DNA of 64,000 nt, from positions 96,049-160,048 of the forward strand of contig MHCP01000015.1 of the NCBI GenBank assembly GCA_001816655.1. The letters run 5' to 3'. Shown in pieces: positions 3,267 to 39,962 of this stretch. Under the pieces are notes generated by a model. The model was given only the letters and a program-made list of their open reading frames with translations. It had not been told where the DNA came from and ran no database searches. Each line of letters begins with the position of its first letter. Within the stretch, counting starts at the first letter, position 1. The position numbers and the translations under genes were made by a program. This stretch comes from Candidatus Woykebacteria bacterium RBG_13_40_15 (lineage in GTDB: Bacteria; Patescibacteriota; Microgenomatia; Woykebacterales; RBG-16-39-9b).

Positions 3267-3270
3267 AGAT

Positions 3271-3969
3271 ATGAAAAGTTGGTGGGAATTGGGCGAAGGC
3301 GCTGGTTTCAGTGGCAACAAACTATCAACCTATCAAATTGATTGCCCTTTTTGTGAGGAAAGAGACAATTTTGAAGAAGCGGCTCATTTCGAAAAGAAGA
3401 AACCAAACTCATCCAAAGTACTAAATTTTGACACCTTAAAGTGTGGTAACTGCGCAGGCTATGTTATGGTTCTTTGGTCGTCTAGTGACTATGACTTTCA
3501 TTCCGGAATCCACGATTTTCGAGTGTTACCCTGGTCACTTACAATAAATAAAGCCCCTACTCATTGGCCTCAAGCAATACAAAGATATTGGGTGCAAGCA
3601 AATAAATCTTTACAAGTCGAAAACTGGGATGCCGCGGCTGAAATGGCTAGAAGTACATTACAAATTGCTTTAAGAGACCACGGGGCTGTTGGTAAGGATT
3701 TATTTGAGGAAATAAATAATCTTGCAGAGAAAGGAGTGTTGCCACCTCTTATGAAAGAATGGTCTCATGAAGTGAGAGAGCTTGGCAACGACTCAGCCCA
3801 TCCCAGACCAGAGCAAAAAGAAACAAGCCTAGGAGATGCCCGAGATATTGTAGAATTTTTGGACTTTCTTCTCGAATATCTTTACGACTTGCCAAAACGA
3901 ATAGAAGATTATAGAGGAAGAAGGAAAGCCGAAAAAGCAACCACTCAGATCAAAAAGAAAACAAACTAG
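3271..3969 (+). CDS. Zn-ribbon (CPFC..CGNC) plus DUF4145-like C-terminal domain protein
   Basis: Real start is ATG 3271, not the ORF-track start 3160 that overlaps dnaK. Two CxxC pairs N-terminally. C-terminal RELGNDSAH motif resembles the DUF4145 signature. Begins 5 nt after the dnaK stop. Confidence 0.6.
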   Translation: MKSWWELGEGAGFSGNKLSTYQIDCPFCEERDNFEEAAHFEKKKPNSSKVLNFDTLKCGNCAGYVMVLWSSSDYDFHSGIHDFRVLPWSLTINKAPTHWPQAIQRYWVQANKSLQVENWDAAAEMARSTLQIALRDHGAVGKDLFEEINNLAEKGVLPPLMKEWSHEVRELGNDSAHPRPEQKETSLGDARDIVEFLDFLLEYLYDLPKRIEDYRGRRKAEKATTQIKKKTN

Positions 3970-3987
3970 TTGTAACAGTATTCCAAA

Positions 3988-4030
3988 CTCCCAAAAACTT
4001 GAAATTTCTATAAGTCAGATATATAATCGC
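3988..4030 (+). promoter_or_regulatory. Promoter repeat copy A (TTGAAA-17-TATAAT)
   Basis: -35 TTGAAA 3999..4004, 17-nt spacer, -10 TATAAT 4022..4027. First of five copies of CCAAAAACTTGAAATTTCTATAAGTCA...TATAAT. Confidence 0.6.
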
Positions 4031-4128
4031 GAAGATTACATCTAGCCCGTTTCTATGCGGGATTTAATCCCGTCAGTGAATAATGTCGGTACCACTGCAT
4101 TAGTACAGTCCGAAAGGAGAGTCGTCTG

Positions 4129-4539
4129 ATGGCTGACAGGAAAAGATCGACTTCTTGGAGAGCCGATCCAGAGTTCCGGAGAATGGTGGAGGAAAAGAAG
4201 CAAGAGCTGGATTACCTCTTCGGTCTTATCGGTCCGTTCGAGGATTGGGAGGACTGGGATGAGTCTATCCCAGACGAGGACGTGGTCCGCTTAGAGCTGC
4301 ACGTAGGAGACGGCATTGAAAGAGGTCATCTGGAGCTAACCATGGGCGAGCTTCGAAGGGTCAAAGAGCTCGCCGAACTGCTCAAAGTGCTGAAAGAGCA
4401 GAAGATCATGATCGAAGAGCCAGACACGATCGCTAGACTCACCAGCGAGCTAGGATCCGAAAGTGCAAAGAGGGCTCTCGAGGTAGTACTCGGAAGCTTG
4501 ATAATCGAAGGCTGTCCTTGCGACGAACTGTCGGACTAA
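4129..4539 (+). CDS. Hypothetical acidic protein (GC-rich cassette gene 1)
   Basis: 136 aa, GC-rich codon usage unlike the flanks. GGAGAG RBS. No recognisable domain. Ends in CPCDELSD. Confidence 0.5.
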   Translation: MADRKRSTSWRADPEFRRMVEEKKQELDYLFGLIGPFEDWEDWDESIPDEDVVRLELHVGDGIERGHLELTMGELRRVKELAELLKVLKEQKIMIEEPDTIARLTSELGSESAKRALEVVLGSLIIEGCPCDELSD

Positions 4540-4562
4540 TCACGGAAGCGAGGAGGCTTAAA

Positions 4563-4913
4563 ATGCTGACAATAAAAATGACCGGCGACAACGGCCATCT
4601 GCTAACCATAAGCAGAGAAGAAGGCAGAATCCTTATGGAAATGCGATCGCCTGGGGATATGATCCGGGGCTATGAGTTCCGAAAGCATCCCATTAGCCTG
4701 GCTCGGGCGCTCCACTACGTCCTGGCAGTCCCCGAATGTGATGACCTCGCCTTCGTCGAGGAGGATTTCAGAGGCAGGGTTTCCGTCAAGGAGGAGGAGT
4801 ACACCTTGACCTTTGACACCTTGGGCGAGTCAAAAGGCGTTACAGTCAAGGCCCGGCGGGATGACTTTTCCGACGTGGTCGGCCTTTTGGAAAATCTCCC
4901 CAGAGGCTCATGA
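4563..4913 (+). CDS. Hypothetical protein (GC-rich cassette gene 2)
   Basis: GGAGG RBS then ATG 4563 (the ORF track starts earlier at 4518, overlapping gene 1). 116 aa with no recognisable domain. Confidence 0.45.
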   Translation: MLTIKMTGDNGHLLTISREEGRILMEMRSPGDMIRGYEFRKHPISLARALHYVLAVPECDDLAFVEEDFRGRVSVKEEEYTLTFDTLGESKGVTVKARRDDFSDVVGLLENLPRGS

Positions 4914-4989
4914 TCGATCGTCGCCACCAGCGCCTGCCGACAGAGCTCGACTTTAACCGGTCGGGCTCTTCCATCTCTAATAATTTTCC

Positions 4990-5065
4990 AAAAAAAACTT
5001 GAAATTTCTAAAGCGGCTTCTTGTGTGTTGACAGTCGATACACTAAAGGGGTACACTAGCGGTGT
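4990..5065 (+). promoter_or_regulatory. Promoter repeat copy B (truncated) fused to a TTGACA-18-TACACT promoter with TACACT/GTGTA operator-like repeats
   Basis: TTGAAATTTCTA 4999..5010, then TTGACA 5028..5033 and TACACT 5052..5057. TACACT occurs at 5039 and 5052, with inverted GTGTA at 5062. The ATG at 5066 leaves almost no leader. Confidence 0.5.
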
Positions 5066-5329
5066 ATGGTAAAAAGGGTAAATATTTCTTTTCCAGAAAA
5101 AACCTTAAATGATCTGAAAGAGCTTGTACCACCTCGAGAAAGAAGCAAACTGGTGAGTGAGGCCGTCGAAGAAAAGTTAAATGATTTTAAAAGGGCTGTA
5201 GCGTTTGAGAAGCTCGAGAAAGCCCGTGAGAAATTCTCTTCCTTTGAGACTATTAAAAGCAAGGAAGACACTGTTGCTTGGGTAAAAAATATGAGAAAAG
5301 GTTGGAATCGCAGAGAAACCTCGAAGTAA
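5066..5329 (+). CDS. vapB: Ribbon-helix-helix (CopG/VapB-like) antitoxin
   Basis: 87 aa with an N-terminal RHH pattern (RVNISFPEKTLNDLKEL..RERSKLVSEAVEEKL). Immediately upstream of a PIN gene. Confidence 0.7.
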   Translation: MVKRVNISFPEKTLNDLKELVPPRERSKLVSEAVEEKLNDFKRAVAFEKLEKAREKFSSFETIKSKEDTVAWVKNMRKGWNRRETSK

Positions 5330-5334
5330 TCAGA

Positions 5335-5709
5335 ATGAAATTATTGGTTGATACAAACGTTTTTATTGCTTACGGTAAAAAAAGAGATGGCGGTTTGGTT
5401 GATAGAATAAAATCTGAGAACCACGATCTTTACACCTCGGTGGTGTCGCTAGCAGAACTTCGGAGCGGAATCCACAAACGAGACCTAAATTTTTATCAAG
5501 CGATTAAAGAAACCTTTAGGCCGCTGCCTGTCGATTTGGAGATTGCGGATTTGGCTGGCGAATTTAGATACGAATTTTTGAGAAAGGGTTTGGATATAGA
5601 TTTGGCCGACCATATCATAGCTGCGACTGCTTTATTAAATAATTTGGCGCTGGTTACTTTCAACAAAAAAGATTTTCCCCACAAAAATCTCGAGCTGTAT
5701 CCAATTTGA
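5335..5709 (+). CDS. vapC: PIN-domain toxin (VapC-like)
   Basis: Start at ATG 5335 (MKLLVDTNVFI). Conserved D in the LVDTN motif. About 125 aa, 5 nt after the RHH stop. Confidence 0.75.
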   Translation: MKLLVDTNVFIAYGKKRDGGLVDRIKSENHDLYTSVVSLAELRSGIHKRDLNFYQAIKETFRPLPVDLEIADLAGEFRYEFLRKGLDIDLADHIIAATALLNNLALVTFNKKDFPHKNLELYPI

Positions 5710-5722
5710 TAAAATTAGCAAA

Positions 5723-5842
5723 ATGGAAATAAAGGAAACACAGGCGAAAAGTATTTTAACCCCTTCCAAATTCACAACTGCTTATGCAGGAAAGAGAACA
5801 CTTCAATCTATTGATAAATTAAAGTGTTTCCCAAAAACTTGA
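5723..5842 (+). pseudogene. Diverged duplicate of the 5' end of the radical-SAM SplB-like gene (remnant)
   Basis: Encodes MEIKETQAKSILTPSK..., versus MEIKEIAAKSVLTPSK at 7693. About 80% nt identity over the first ~48 nt, then divergence. The stop falls inside promoter repeat C. Confidence 0.55.
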
Positions 5843-5870
5843 AATTTCTATAAGTCAAAGATATAATTCC
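5829..5870 (+). promoter_or_regulatory. Promoter repeat copy C (TTGAAA-17-TATAAT)
   Basis: -35 at 5839..5844 and -10 at 5862..5867. Near-identical to copies A and E. Confidence 0.6.
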
Positions 5871-5964
5871 ACCAACAACAGAAAAGACTCAACCAAGCCA
5901 GCCACTTACCTAAGAAGGGATTTCAAGTGTAGTTTCGGAGGAATACGAAAGGAGCACGGCGGAA

Positions 5965-6702
5965 ATGAGTGAGGGACGAGTTGCTTTGGTCACTGGTTCA
6001 TCTCGTGGAATCGGCCAGGCCATCGCAGTCAAGCTGGCTTCTCAAGGAGCAAGAGTGGCCATCAACTGTTTCCGAGACTTAGATGGTGCAGCTGAAACGC
6101 TGCGCTTAATCGAATCATCTGGAGGCCAGGCCGTCATAATCAGAGCGGATCTCGGTAGTGCCGAAGGAGTTGCCGACCTGCTTGGAAGAACTCAGCAGGC
6201 TCTGGGAGATATCGATATCCTCGTCCACAATGCCGGGTATTTCTATGCCACTCTCCTGCCTCGCTTCAAGAGGGAAGAGTGGGATAAACTGATACAGATT
6301 AACCTGACAGCGGCTTTCGAGCTCGCTAGCGGTGTATATCTGCAAATGGCGAGGAGGAGATGGGGCCGCATTGTCTTCATTTCTTCAGTCATTGCCCTGG
6401 CTGGCAACACCGGTCAGAGTGGTTACGGAGCTGCAAAGGCAGGGCTGATTGGGCTTGCCAAGTCAGTTGCTGTTGAATATGGTGCTAGGGAAATCACCTG
6501 TAACGTCGTTGCGCCAGGATACATCAGAACCAGGATGACCGAGGATGTTCACGAAGAGACCATCGGCGAAGCTTTAGAACGGCAAGCAATCAAACGGCCT
6601 GGAACACCAGAAGACGTAGCTGCCTTGGTCGGTTTTCTAGCTAGCGACGAGGCTAGTTGGATTACTAGGCAGGTATTCCAGGTCGACGGGGGCCTCCTAT
6701 GA
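5965..6702 (+). CDS. Short-chain dehydrogenase/reductase, 3-oxoacyl-ACP reductase (FabG)-like
   Basis: TGSSRGIGQAIA glycine-rich motif and a conserved YGAAK catalytic motif. GC-rich, with a GGAGG RBS. Confidence 0.8.
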   Translation: MSEGRVALVTGSSRGIGQAIAVKLASQGARVAINCFRDLDGAAETLRLIESSGGQAVIIRADLGSAEGVADLLGRTQQALGDIDILVHNAGYFYATLLPRFKREEWDKLIQINLTAAFELASGVYLQMARRRWGRIVFISSVIALAGNTGQSGYGAAKAGLIGLAKSVAVEYGAREITCNVVAPGYIRTRMTEDVHEETIGEALERQAIKRPGTPEDVAALVGFLASDEASWITRQVFQVDGGLL

Positions 6703-6737
6703 TGCGGGGTTCCCCAAACAGGCCGTAACTTGAGCGA

Positions 6738-7175
6738 GTGCTTGGCGCACTTTTGGAAGGAGGAACGGATTTGGCTGGAATAAACGTCGCCCAATTAACG
6801 AAGGGCTACAAATTTCCCCCGATTACCTTTGCCGTCTCAGCCGAGCAGGCAGAGGCATACCGGAAGGTGACCGAGGGTGTCGAGGGATCAAGCTATATCC
6901 CTCCGCTCGGGGCGATCGCATTCGCCCTTCAGTCCCTGCTCGAGCAGGTGGAGTTGCCGGAAGGCTCGGTTCATGGCGGAGAGGGTTACGAGTGCCATAG
7001 CCCAATTGCGGTTGGTAGCGAGCTAATTGCGAATGGCTCTGTCGTTGACCGAGCTGACCGCGGAAGCTTCGCCCTCCTCGAAGTGGAGATCCAACTGACA
7101 GTGGCAGGTTCTTTGGAACCGGCCTTGGTAAGTGGAGCAACACTCGTGACGCCGCTGCTCAAAGGAGGCTACTGA
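6738..7175 (+). CDS. Hotdog-fold protein, MaoC N-terminal-like (HadA-like non-catalytic partner)
   Basis: 145 aa, GC-rich, directly followed and overlapped by a MaoC dehydratase gene. This is the HadA-HadB-like pair arrangement (inference). Confidence 0.45.
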   Translation: MLGALLEGGTDLAGINVAQLTKGYKFPPITFAVSAEQAEAYRKVTEGVEGSSYIPPLGAIAFALQSLLEQVELPEGSVHGGEGYECHSPIAVGSELIANGSVVDRADRGSFALLEVEIQLTVAGSLEPALVSGATLVTPLLKGGY

Positions 7176-7576
7176 TGACTGTTCTAACTGCTCCGGCTGA
7201 GCTTCGTGCCACCCGCCAGTTCGATCAGGAAACCATCAACCGCTACGCCGATCTGGTCGGGGATCACAACCCCATTCATGTCGACGAGGAGTTTGCGAGG
7301 AGCACTCCTTTCGGCGGGACAATTGCCCATGGCATGCTCGTCTTGTCGCTAGCCTCTAACATGCTGGAGAAGCAATTCGGCGACCGGTGGCGAGCGTCGG
7401 GCAAGTTGAAGGTTCGGTTCAAGGCGCCGACCAAAAGCGGAGCTACCGTTACTGCTCAAGCCAGTTTGAAGGAGGGGGAGCAGCCGGCCGACAACAAGAT
7501 CGCGACCTACCGAGTCGAATGCCGGAACGAGCAGAGAGAGGTAGTCATAGTGGGCACTGCGCAGGTTACTCTGTAA
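7175..7576 (+). CDS. MaoC-like (R)-specific dehydratase, hotdog fold (HadB/PhaJ-like)
   Basis: DLVGDHNPIHVD..GGTIAHGM matches the MaoC dehydratase active-site motif. ATGA start overlaps the upstream stop. Confidence 0.75.
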   Translation: MTVLTAPAELRATRQFDQETINRYADLVGDHNPIHVDEEFARSTPFGGTIAHGMLVLSLASNMLEKQFGDRWRASGKLKVRFKAPTKSGATVTAQASLKEGEQPADNKIATYRVECRNEQREVVIVGTAQVTL

Positions 7577-7595
7577 CCCAGTGCCCAAGTTCGGT

Positions 7596-7642
7596 CCCCG
7601 GGGCCTTGCTGTTCCAGCAAAGGTCCCGGGATAGCCTCTTTT
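7596..7642 (+). terminator. Possible intrinsic terminator after the FabG/hotdog cassette
   Basis: Imperfect GC-rich hairpin (CCTTGCTG-ttc-CAGCAAAGG, flanked by CCCCGGGG and TCCCGGGA), then CTCTTTTA. Confidence 0.3.
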
Positions 7643-7692
7643 ATCAGACATTAAGTTCCCAATAAATTCCTATCTTCTGCTAAAATGACTCT

Positions 7693-8541
7693 GTGGAAAT
7701 AAAAGAAATAGCAGCGAAAAGTGTTTTAACTCCCTCCAAACTCCCCGGAGTTGATTTTGTGGTTAATCCTTACATTAGTTGCGGTTTTGCGTGCACTTAT
7801 TGCTACGCAACTTTTATGGCAAGATATGTCGGCAAGACAGCGAACGATTGGGGAAAATTTGTTTTTGTAAAAGAAAACGCTCCCGAAGTTTTAAAAGAGG
7901 AACTAGCAAAACTAAAAAATAAAGGAGCTGGAAAAAGTATCCTTTTTAGTTCTGTCACCGATCCCTATCAAGGTGCAGAATCAAAATATAAAATTACCCA
8001 AAAGTGTCTGGAAGTTTTAGCAGATTTTGGTTTCAGTGGACAAGTTGGAATTTTAACAAAATCCAATTTAGTTTTAAGAGATGCGGATACATTTAAAAAA
8101 CTAAAAGATGTTGAGGTGGGACTGACTATTATAACAACTGATGATAAAATTTCTCGCTATTTTGAAAAATATGCACCAGCTGCAAGTTTAAGACTAGAAG
8201 CCTTGAAGAAACTAAATGAAGAGGGTATAAAAACTTACGTGTTTGTCGGACCTCTTTTGCCTCATTTTGTTGCCGAAGAAGAAAAGCTGGAAAAGCTTTT
8301 TAAAGAGATTTCCGAAACAGGAAACAAGGGGCTTTTTGTGGAACACATAAATTTGAGTAAATATATTTTGGAAAGACTGGAGAGGGAAACAAAAGATTTG
8401 GATAAAAGTACAACAGCCAAGTTTTATGAGTCAAAACAAAAACCTTACAGAGACAGACTGGATGAAATCGTTGTAAAGTTAGTTAAAAAATACAATTTGA
8501 AACTTCGATCCGGCTCCACAATCTACCATCGCGGGTCTTAA
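7693..8541 (+). CDS. Radical SAM protein, SplB-like (DNA-repair photolyase family, COG1533-like)
   Basis: CGFACTYC (CxxxCxxC) near the N-terminus. GTG start. AT-rich, host-like composition. 282 aa. Confidence 0.8.
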   Translation: MEIKEIAAKSVLTPSKLPGVDFVVNPYISCGFACTYCYATFMARYVGKTANDWGKFVFVKENAPEVLKEELAKLKNKGAGKSILFSSVTDPYQGAESKYKITQKCLEVLADFGFSGQVGILTKSNLVLRDADTFKKLKDVEVGLTIITTDDKISRYFEKYAPAASLRLEALKKLNEEGIKTYVFVGPLLPHFVAEEEKLEKLFKEISETGNKGLFVEHINLSKYILERLERETKDLDKSTTAKFYESKQKPYRDRLDEIVVKLVKKYNLKLRSGSTIYHRGS

Positions 8542-8547
8542 ATTTTC

Positions 8548-8585
8548 CCCACTAAACTTGAAGATTTATCTATTTGTAGTATAAT
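8548..8585 (+). promoter_or_regulatory. Promoter repeat copy D (diverged, TTGAAG-16-TATAAT)
   Basis: CCCCACTAAACTTGAAGATTTATCTATTTGTAGTATAAT. -35 at 8558..8563 and -10 at 8580..8585. Confidence 0.5.
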
Positions 8586-8641
8586 CTGCGCACAATCGAA
8601 TATATTGGAGAGTGCTTCGAAAAACCTTCGAGAAAGGAGGG

Positions 8642-9388
8642 ATGGTTGCCATGTTGCGCTTTCTTCAGCAGCTAACAAGGCGACTCCGAGGAAGAAGTCT
8701 AACCAAGGCCAAGCTTTGGTTGGCGCTTTTGTCCTTGGTGTTCTTGCCTCTTTTTGTGAGTGCCGAGCCTGCCTGTGAGGCGCAGAAGATCCGCGAGCGG
8801 TATGGAGTGGAGATTGTGCTCGTGGGTCAGAGCTGGAGCGAGACCAGCCTGGGCGCGGTTGACGACGCTTTGAGTCGACTTCCACCGCATGTCGTCAGCC
8901 AATTGGGTAGCCGGTTCAACGGCAGTCTGTACATACTGTGCAACACTGAGTCGCGTACCCTATCCGGTACCAGCGTCTTCTCGCACGGCGCGAACTTCTA
9001 CTCCAATAGTGACGGCCGCAACGAGCTCGTCCTCTACCCCGACCAGAGTACACCCACTGTCCTGCACGAACTAGCCCATGCCTATCAACTCCGCTTAGTT
9101 CCAGCGGGAAAGTACGCTCTGGTCTTTCGAGACGAGAAGATGAAGGACTTCATGCAAGCCACCGGTTGGCGTCTACTTAGCTCCGATGCGCAGGTGGAAA
9201 CTGCTCTTGATCAGACACAGCTAAGCTTCGCCTATGATGGTCCGACGGTCTGGCATTTCATGTCCAACAACGACCCGCTGGAGGACTACGCGAACTCGTT
9301 CGCCCTGTTCTTCTACGACCTGGAGCGTCTTCGCCAACTCTCGCCAGTGCGCTACGACTGGATCCTAGAGCACGTGGCCAGCGAGTGA
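8642..9388 (+). CDS. Secreted putative Zn-metallopeptidase-like protein (HELAH motif)
   Basis: Start is ATG 8642, after an AAAGGAGGG RBS. N-terminal hydrophobic signal-like segment. HEXXH motif (VLHELAHAYQ). GC-rich. Confidence 0.55.
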   Translation: MVAMLRFLQQLTRRLRGRSLTKAKLWLALLSLVFLPLFVSAEPACEAQKIRERYGVEIVLVGQSWSETSLGAVDDALSRLPPHVVSQLGSRFNGSLYILCNTESRTLSGTSVFSHGANFYSNSDGRNELVLYPDQSTPTVLHELAHAYQLRLVPAGKYALVFRDEKMKDFMQATGWRLLSSDAQVETALDQTQLSFAYDGPTVWHFMSNNDPLEDYANSFALFFYDLERLRQLSPVRYDWILEHVASE

Positions 9389-9427
9389 AGTTGATGACGA
9401 CGAAGTGCCGAGAATCAGTGAACAGTC

Positions 9428-9457
9428 AAAGGCCCTTGCAGCCAGCGAGGGCCCTTT
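9428..9457 (+). terminator. Possible terminator hairpin after the HEXXH gene
   Basis: AAAGGCCC-ttgcagccagcga-GGGCCCTTT, followed by a short T-run. Confidence 0.35.
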
Positions 9458-9465
9458 CTAATTCC

Positions 9466-9502
9466 CCAAAACTTGAAATTTCTATAAGTCATACATTATA
9501 AT
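9466..9502 (+). promoter_or_regulatory. Promoter repeat copy E (TTGAAA-18-TATAAT)
   Basis: -35 at 9473..9478 and -10 at 9497..9502. Its downstream leader shares GAAAGGAGGGATGG with copy D's leader. Confidence 0.6.
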
Positions 9503-9569
9503 TCCACCACAATTGAATATCGCGGACGGTGTCCTCCGAGAAATCGAAGGGCTTTCAAAGAAAGGAGGG

Positions 9570-10562
9570 ATGGCCGAGATGGCTACCCGACTGCCTCAAA
9601 AAGGGATGGCACCTGGTGCTACCCGAGGCAAACCTGTTACCCTTGAGCAGGTTCTCGATCTGTTGGAACGATTGAAGGGGAAGAAGTTCGGGTTAAGGGA
9701 GTTTCAGAGACTCATTGAGTCGTTCGATGTCCTCGCTCTTATTGGGAGCGGAGAACTGACGAGGGAGACGTTGCGCCTTATCCTTACCCCTAATGAGGGC
9801 TGGGCCGCTGGCGAACTTCAAAGGATGCTGAGTTCCTACTTCCCTTTCTGGAATGAGGAAATTGAGTCCTCACAAGGCTATCCCGATGGTTACCGATTCA
9901 AGTCTGCAGCCGGGAAGCTGCTAGCCTTGCAGAGTCTTCACCTTCTCGGTACCGATGACTATGGCAGCCACGTAAAAGAGCTAGCCACCCACTACGCTCG
10001 CAACATGCCTAAGGGAGCCGAGGAGCTTTTAGTTTGCCCGAAACCCTCAAGGGCGAAGGAGTGGGGGTTAACTTACTCCTACAACCTACCCTTAAGTAGT
10101 GCGTTGATAATCCTAGACAGGGCCATAAAGCCAAGGTTCCAAAACTGGTGGAAAGATGAGCAGCTTGGCGACACCGAGATGCTAAGACTCACCGACAAAA
10201 CTGCAGCAGCGCTCGACAAGCTGGAGGCGGAAACACCAGGAGACTACCTAGTCATTCCTGTCCAGATGGGGATGAGGCACCGTGGCAGAAGCGCTCGTAG
10301 AGCTGTAGCCTGCTTCGCCGAAAACGAGTTCGGTCTCGGTCCTCTCGAAGTCGCCTACTACCTTGCTAGCTGTCCCGAGCGGTTCGTCATGTGGTACGAT
10401 CTAGGGATTATCTGCGCAGGTGCCGAATGCAAAGATAGTCCTAAGGGGGAGTTCGACGGTTGCCCAGCCTTCAACGAGCACCAGGATAGGATCAATCTTC
10501 GCTACCGCCGAGCTGACGAGTACAGTGATTTGTATGGGGTGGCGACCGGCTTCCTGTCGTAG
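9570..10562 (+). CDS. Hypothetical protein (GC-rich orphan, 330 aa)
   Basis: Start is ATG 9570 after an AAAGGAGGG RBS. No recognisable domain. Cys-rich C-terminus. Confidence 0.5.
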   Translation: MAEMATRLPQKGMAPGATRGKPVTLEQVLDLLERLKGKKFGLREFQRLIESFDVLALIGSGELTRETLRLILTPNEGWAAGELQRMLSSYFPFWNEEIESSQGYPDGYRFKSAAGKLLALQSLHLLGTDDYGSHVKELATHYARNMPKGAEELLVCPKPSRAKEWGLTYSYNLPLSSALIILDRAIKPRFQNWWKDEQLGDTEMLRLTDKTAAALDKLEAETPGDYLVIPVQMGMRHRGRSARRAVACFAENEFGLGPLEVAYYLASCPERFVMWYDLGIICAGAECKDSPKGEFDGCPAFNEHQDRINLRYRRADEYSDLYGVATGFLS

Positions 10563-10594
10563 CTCATCCACCTTCTAACCACAGTTGTTAACAA

Positions 10595-10632
10595 GGCGCC
10601 CGACTCTAACCCAGTCGGGCGCTACCATTTCT
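10595..10632 (+). terminator. Intrinsic terminator at the right end of the island
   Basis: Perfect 9-10 bp stem GGCGCCCGAC / GTCGGGCGC with a 9-nt loop, then TACCATTTCT. Confidence 0.5.
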
Positions 10633-10681
10633 AATACTATTAGCAAATTTTGGTTGAATCTGCTAAAATTCATCACTAGTT

Positions 10682-10834
10682 ATGGCTGAAAAACGTGATT
10701 ACTACCAAATCTTAGGCGTAGGAAAAACAGCCTCCGCCGATGAAATAGCATCCTTTGTATGCGAAAAAGACATTCGTATTTTTCGCGTACTCCCGGATGC
10801 TGCGATTAAGCATAGGCTACGCCTATTAGCTTAA
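10682..10834 (+). pseudogene. Diverged duplicate of the dnaJ 5' end (J-domain start), remnant ORF
   Basis: Encodes MAEKRDYYQILGVGKTASADEI, then unrelated sequence. Compare dnaJ MAKRDYYEVLGVSKTASADDI 190 nt downstream. Confidence 0.5.
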
Positions 10835-10869
10835 TCTTTAAAAAAGCTTATTATTTTGATTAACTATTT

Positions 10870-12589: not shown

Positions 12590-12715
12590 TCCCTTCCGGT
12601 TTTTATTTTATTTACTACTCGGTTTATTGTCAACTTTAGCGGGACTTAAAGTGGAGCAGGGTTGACCAGAAAATACTTTAGTGCTACTATTGGCGTATAA
12701 TTTTAGAGACTTACC

Positions 12716-12748: not shown

Positions 12749-12807
12749 TAGGAAGGTGACAAGTAACAGGTAACAAGTTGCCAAGAGATTTTTAAAAATA
12801 ACTTGTT

Positions 12808-39925: not shown

Positions 39926-39962
39926 ATATCTCGCTAGAAAAACGCGAGATGTAATCTTACGA
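39926..39962. repeat. Hairpin plus AGATGTAATCT palindromic element (copy 1)
   Basis: ATATCTCGC-tagaaaaac-GCGAGAT-GTAATCTTACG, immediately upstream of the rpsG ATG. Confidence 0.5.

Follow-up and report, generated by a model that had tools for sequence, protein, structure and literature searches.

The operon and its flanking elements

The DNA considered here, referred to as the window, is a stretch of 64,000 nucleotides from the uncultured CPR organism Candidatus Woykebacteria bacterium RBG_13_40_15, in which two short genes, ORF1 and ORF2, lie behind a promoter in the interval between dnaK and dnaJ. The features of this interval are the following, in window coordinates:

3267-10869, plus strand: inserted DNA (the island) from the dnaK stop to the start of the intact dnaJ, 7.6 kb, absent from the relative L054
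3271-3969, plus strand: RAZR/PD-T7-4-like gene with a Cys4 zinc ribbon and DUF4145/HEPN, a neighbour outside the cassette
3981-4010, plus strand: left half of the native spacer (TTCC...A-tract and core CTTGAAATTTCTA), matching L054 12670-12699 except that the C/A tract is offset by 1 nt
3999-4027, plus strand: promoter A, TTGAAA-17-TATAAT, 11 of 12 consensus positions
4028-4128, plus strand: 5' leader of about 95 nt, containing AAGATTACATCT as a half-site (4032-4043) and GGGATTTAATCCC as a small hairpin (4059-4071)
4129-4539, plus strand: ORF1, 136 aa; ATG at 4129, TAA at 4537-4539, Shine-Dalgarno AAGGAG at 4114-4119
4563-4913, plus strand: ORF2, 116 aa; ATG at 4563, TGA at 4911-4913, Shine-Dalgarno GAGGAGG at 4550-4556, 6 nt 5' of the ATG
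4942-4969, plus strand: GC-rich hairpin 3' of ORF2, 11 bp, RNA fold -22.3 kcal/mol, z -3.0
4944-4982, plus strand: 3' module (hairpin and CCATCTCTAATA), present also at the end (10597-10636) of an unrelated cassette of 349 aa, with identity at 32 of 39 positions
4993-5010, plus strand: next core copy, AAAAACTTGAAATTTCTA, closing a 1000-bp unit (4011-5010)
5833-5850 and 9467-9484: further copies of the spacer core, with a diverged copy at 8552-8585
5066-5709: genuine RHH-PIN pair, in the same island
10636-10747, plus strand: native spacer, right half (ACTATTAGCAAATTTT...TGCTAAAAT), running into a dnaJ 5' remnant of 22 codons; the stretch aligns with L054 12712-12824

ORF1 and ORF2 share the same orientation, each has its own Shine-Dalgarno sequence, and the stop of the first is separated from the ATG of the second by 23 nt; the tight linkage reported in an earlier note on this DNA was thus confirmed, with the gap corrected from the 24 nt given there. 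As in the co-transcribed pairs of type II toxin-antitoxin systems, one promoter and one terminator enclose the two genes across this short gap. The two intact frames, with strong and correctly spaced Shine-Dalgarno sequences, occupy 762 of about 930 GC-rich bases, and in the called frames both show the GC distribution over codon positions that is usual for coding DNA (GC1/GC2/GC3 of.62/.35/.61 in ORF1 and.58/.39/.66 in ORF2). An overlapping frame on the minus strand (4715-5056) was rejected, its codon-position GC being devoid of the coding pattern. We consider it highly probable that ORF1-ORF2 is a real coding operon.

The promoter that the note had placed upstream of the pair was found as described, and the piece of DNA called there promoter copy A turned out to be a reiterated portion of the native dnaK-dnaJ spacer, copies of which separate several cassettes. 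In particular, the left half of the spacer (3981-4010) provides the UP-like tract and the -35 element of promoter A. The promoter is found again at 5839-5867 and also at 9473-9502, there with a spacer of 18 nt, and near-consensus promoters precede units at 3999, 5839, 8558 and 9473. The word CTTGAAATTTCTA occurs four times, always within 3998-9484, where about 0.5 occurrences would be expected; none of 100 shuffles reached four. The promoter 20-mer was absent from the genome and metagenome collections, and the matches of a 17-mer in IMG/VR were discarded as unrelated sequences.

The 5' leader gave no match in Rfam at E<=1, and the stability of its fold is not unusual (z -1.22). The half-site at 4032-4043 is common to REP-like hairpins at 39.9 and 57.3-57.4 kb. 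Of the two leader palindromes said in the note to recur in the ribosomal operon, AGATTACATCT does so, with exact copies at 39947 and 57392 on the minus strand, in spacers of ribosomal-protein genes, where it forms one arm of the REP-like hairpin; GGGATTTAATCCC has no second copy in the window, the other sites differing by at least 2 mismatches, which is the level of chance. At the other end of the operon, the hairpin at 4942-4969 probably acts as a terminator and has a weak U tract. The match between the 3' module and 10597-10636 is the best non-self match of that module in the window on either strand, and two cassettes of the island share both their 5' and 3' modules.

The insertion between dnaK and dnaJ

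Close relatives were sought by GrpE-anchored scans of species-representative genomes and of metagenomes; none was found among the former, and the latter yielded one, L054. Its grpE product is 84% identical at the protein level, and its gene order is hrcA-grpE-80aa-dnaK-dnaJ-nusA-infB, with dnaK ending at 12621 and the adjacent dnaJ starting at 12756 across a 134-nt spacer. Since dnaK and dnaJ are adjacent in this close relative, the 7.6 kb between them in the window must have been inserted. In fact, the array is bracketed by both halves of an L054-type spacer, the second of which runs into a dnaJ 5' remnant (10682-10747) that translates to MAEKRDYYQILGVGKTASADEI. The locus presents variable cassettes between conserved genes, with an empty site in L054, as is characteristic of an integration hotspot. 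Gene remnants are present within the island.

The composition of the cassette is unlike that of its host, as the earlier note had observed: ORF1 and ORF2 have a GC content of 0.53-0.54 and a GC3 of 0.61 and 0.66, respectively, versus a GC3 of 0.23-0.40 in housekeeping genes across the window. Furthermore, their joint codon usage correlates better with that of other GC-rich cassettes (r 0.44-0.63) than with that of host genes (r 0.34). An adjoining GC-rich gene of 258 aa has homologues at 44-57% identity, one of which sits in a conserved chromosomal context, in a stretch of 69% GC on a 1.46-Mb contig. That the cassette is a foreign insertion appears very probable, and the best reading of the locus is a recent horizontal acquisition, in which the pair makes up a single cargo unit (about 4011-5010) within a mosaic of cassettes in the dnaK-dnaJ spacer.

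The island resembles integron cassette arrays and CALINs in its co-oriented, unrelated foreign units, in its short reiterated module, and in the imperfect hairpins at the unit ends. However, different from the promoterless cassettes of integrons, served by a common Pc, the units carry their own promoter copies (at the four positions given above), their reiterated module corresponds to part of the native dnaK-dnaJ spacer, and the units also hold gene 5' remnants. By eye, no R''/R' architecture of attC sites (RYYYAAC...GTTRRRY) was recognized, the element at 4942-4969 being a simple 11-bp stem, and no integrase-like protein was seen among the listed ORFs of the window (from 12 kb onward, those of at least 120 aa). 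An integron was rejected on the grounds of attC, promoters and, as far as the listed ORFs go, integrase. The minimal mobile elements of Neisseria offer another likeness, namely, whole-gene cassettes between conserved flanks with an empty site in a relative, and the island pattern would be consistent with recombination in the flanks as the means of exchange; different from those elements, several cassettes are stacked here, every one of them preceded by a copy of the spacer promoter region, and the host is a CPR bacterium.

The gene immediately upstream of the cassette matches Pfam DUF4145 (1.4e-17), PADLOC PD-T7-4 (1.1e-11), and PHROG 1305 (3.3e-32). Its product has CxxC pairs at residues 25 and 58 and an R169-x7-H177 arrangement, with a spacing like that of R146/H154 in RAZR. 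PD-T7-4, renamed RAZR, has been shown to be a single-gene abortive-infection RNase (PMC13017515), and ORF1 and ORF2 fall outside that lone-acting system. The codon usage of this gene is host-like (r 0.74 to housekeeping genes versus 0.34 for ORF1 and ORF2), which implies different origins. Ordinary metabolic genes (FabG, MaoC/HadAB-like) are likewise present in the island, and for this reason its gene content is not a specific pointer to defence.

The ORF1 and ORF2 proteins

In a word-indexed search of 5.8 billion clusters, ORF1 and ORF2 each retrieved only themselves, and an exhaustive phmmer search of the concatenated proteins against 1.84 billion representatives gave no credible match beyond self. 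Three additional phmmer matches, to giant adhesin-like proteins of 3,300-3,950 aa, were rejected: either the score accumulates from 2-11 weak matches of repeats, each worth about 30 bits at 34% identity across 44 aa, or BLASTP aligns nothing. No domain was detected in Pfam (even at E<=10), NCBIfam, PHROGs, or PADLOC, in agreement with the earlier statement that the proteins have no recognizable domains; comparison with PDB sequences gave nothing better than E of about 1, tblastn against phage and plasmid collections and scans of IMG/VR gave nothing, and no paralogue occurs in the window or in the fetched loci. Exact-protein look-ups placed neither ORF1 and ORF2 nor the RHH and RAZR-like proteins on record in other assemblies; GrpE alone was found, on a 1-kb Logan contig. 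As neither protein has a homologue, conservation, evidence of selection, and co-occurrence of the pair are all lacking. The note had argued that a complete lack of conservation of both frames would suggest non-functional debris. Such a lack is what the two large searches returned, and debris is nevertheless disfavoured because of the coding signature and the well-formed predicted fold of ORF2.

The structure predictions that the note had proposed gave a candidate fold for ORF2 and no fold match for ORF1. ORF1 is acidic, as had been claimed (pI 4.55; 34 D+E versus 19 K+R), and would not be purely helical, its low-confidence AF2 model (pLDDT 55) containing a beta-hairpin at residues 52-71 and no known DNA-binding fold.

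For ORF2, the single-sequence AF2 model, of moderate confidence (pLDDT 65.7; the two best of the five models agree), presents the topology beta4-alpha-beta4-alpha in a single chain, which corresponds to that of type I PC4-like (Whirly) domains. This topology defines the type I PC4-like domains, a fold of about 150 aa (PMC7549692). A crude amphipathic periodicity, computed from the sequence, fits the modelled strands and helices. Residues 35-43, where strand 4 is expected, have a pLDDT below 50, and an internal repeat is not significant at the sequence level. Matches to immunity-protein folds scored far below the Whirly group. Thus, on the basis of the model, we regard a PC4-like fold of type I (Whirly/MRP) as fairly probable for ORF2.

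ORF2 shows some distinctive features compared to the proteins known to have this fold. At 116 aa, it is shorter than the type I domain and acidic, it has no sequence similarity to the type I representatives (Whirly p24/StWhy2, trypanosome MRP1/MRP2, repeats I-II of PUR), and at E<=10 Pfam gave no match that would place it in one of the constituent families (Whirly, PurA, MRP, SsgA, PC4, DUF2128, DUF3276). In PMC7549692, type I is exemplified by eukaryotic proteins (Whirly p24, MRP1/2, PUR repeats I-II), whereas the proteins described from bacteria and phages (YdbC, SP_0782, Borrelia Pur-alpha, T5 PC4-like) form homodimers of type II. The charge of ORF2 (pI 5.2; 16 K+R versus 21 D+E) does not favour nucleic-acid binding. 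MRP1/2 and Whirly proteins bind nucleic acid by means of basic sheets, and SsgA-like proteins have the same fold and are not known as nucleic-acid binders. Different from the SsgA-like proteins of actinomycetes, ORF2 is encoded in a CPR genome next to an acidic partner gene.

Interpretation of the pair

The explanation that we place just on the probable side is that ORF1-ORF2 is a recently acquired, sequence-orphan bicistronic operon, carried as one cargo unit in a dnaK-dnaJ insertion hotspot. The reiterated native spacer upstream gives the operon its A-tract and TTGAAA -35 element, joined to a consensus TATAAT at 17 nt, and the operon ends at the GC-rich hairpin. By analogy with its predicted fold, ORF2 may bind single-stranded DNA or RNA, or may employ the same surface as an oligomeric scaffold. 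ORF1, which is acidic, co-translated with ORF2 and contains the stretch FEDWEDWDESIPDEDV, could bind and regulate this surface as a nucleic-acid mimic or partner. We put forward only tentatively this assignment of ORF2 as a nucleic-acid binder and ORF1 as its acidic regulator. Since the hotspot also holds the RAZR-like RNase and the RHH-PIN pair, ORF1-ORF2 would most likely serve in mobile-element or phage conflict rather than in core physiology.

If the pair were a conflict module in its own right, whether a toxin-antitoxin pair of type II, a small system for defence, or a trapped phage operon for anti-defence or DNA mimicry, ORF1 would be the neutralizer or mimic and ORF2 the effector. Such a module would account for small, tightly linked genes behind their own promoter, for the small leader palindromes, for the strong acidity of ORF1, and for the position of the pair between the RAZR-like gene and the RHH-PIN pair; orphan, fast-evolving sequences are also common among genes of this type. 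The likeness to type II operons extends to the compact two-gene layout in a variable island, beside a pair of that very kind. However, neither a toxin domain nor a DNA-binding antitoxin was detected with Pfam, NCBIfam, PADLOC, or the ORF1 model, no toxin, antitoxin, or defence model of Pfam, PADLOC, PHROGs, or NCBIfam matched, no relatives were found in phages, plasmids, or IMG/VR, and the immunity-protein folds ranked far below the Whirly group. Toxin-antitoxin families are, moreover, normally widespread, whereas this pair belongs to no family, has no wider distribution, and is unique in about 15 billion proteins, so that we hold such a module to be rather unlikely. That the pair and the upstream DUF4145 gene form one module of three genes, for defence or toxin-immunity, as the earlier note had envisaged, appears very unlikely. 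Adjacency speaks for it (160 nt from the DUF4145 stop at 3969 to the ORF1 start), but these 160 nt contain a native spacer fragment and a separate promoter, RAZR/PD-T7-4 acts as a single gene (PMC13017515), and the host-like codon usage of the upstream gene, which differs from that of the pair, leaves the joint module unsupported. A conserved partner gene accompanying DUF4145, as expected of a RAZR accessory, was not observed either: no ORF1 or ORF2 homologue lies beside any DUF4145 gene, because no homologues exist anywhere in the collections searched.

The pair could also be non-functional hitch-hiking DNA, that is, decaying or accidental frames of a recently transferred fragment, with no cause of transcription other than the adjacent promoter, and the complete absence of conservation, the poor model of ORF1, and the gene remnants of the island would all fit. 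We judge this unlikely in view of two intact ORFs that fill most of the GC-rich segment behind strong Shine-Dalgarno sequences, of their coding-type GC at codon positions, and of the matching promoter and terminator modules of the unit. Less likely again, though more likely than a module with DUF4145, is that ORF2 acts as a scaffold between proteins in the manner of SsgA, perhaps as a factor of cell division or localization obtained from a high-GC bacterium, rather than as a nucleic-acid binder; its acidic pI would suit a protein-binding rather than an RNA-binding surface, and its GC-rich donor signature would agree. Against it, there is no match to Pfam SsgA even at E<=10, and the 116 aa of ORF2 compare with 137 residues in the 3cm1 chain; SsgA-like proteins are longer than 116 aa and, to our knowledge, restricted to actinomycetes. 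Finally, the source is a metagenome-assembled genome, the unit is flanked by exact 18-nt repeats, and the exact proteins are on record in no other assembly, as would be the case if the GC-rich segment were an assembly chimera. Yet several separate GC-rich segments lie precisely between reiterated AT-rich modules of host type, co-oriented and with intact ORFs and Shine-Dalgarno sites, and a GC-rich donor would not carry a CPR spacer sequence, which L054 identifies as native; a chimera is therefore extremely unlikely.

Beyond the acquired operon that we prefer, it is possible to hypothesize, as a speculation that we consider improbable, that the dnaK-dnaJ spacer is a cassette capture-and-expression site at the core CTTGAAATTTCTA, receiving cargo from GC-rich bacteria that may be its hosts or neighbours, and that ORF1-ORF2 is a new system of a PC4-like/Whirly protein and an acidic mimic. 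Each cassette would then be preceded by its own copy of the native UP and -35 elements, joined to a consensus -10, and followed by a common hairpin module, according to an integron-like logic that would operate without IntI or attC.

If the two proteins are functional, ORF2 would represent a sequence-orphan bacterial instance of the PC4-like/Whirly fold in its single-chain form, which is known mainly from nucleic-acid binders of eukaryotic organelles and nuclei, and would have an acidic partner dedicated to it. The context may outweigh the proteins themselves: a CPR bacterium with a reduced genome has stacked several foreign cassettes between core chaperone genes, at a site for which a relative provides the empty control, and these cassettes are compositionally unameliorated, each lying behind a reiterated native spacer promoter region. 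The locus thus provides a concrete and testable example of the acquisition and expression of foreign genes in CPR bacteria and, possibly, also of the donors of these genes.

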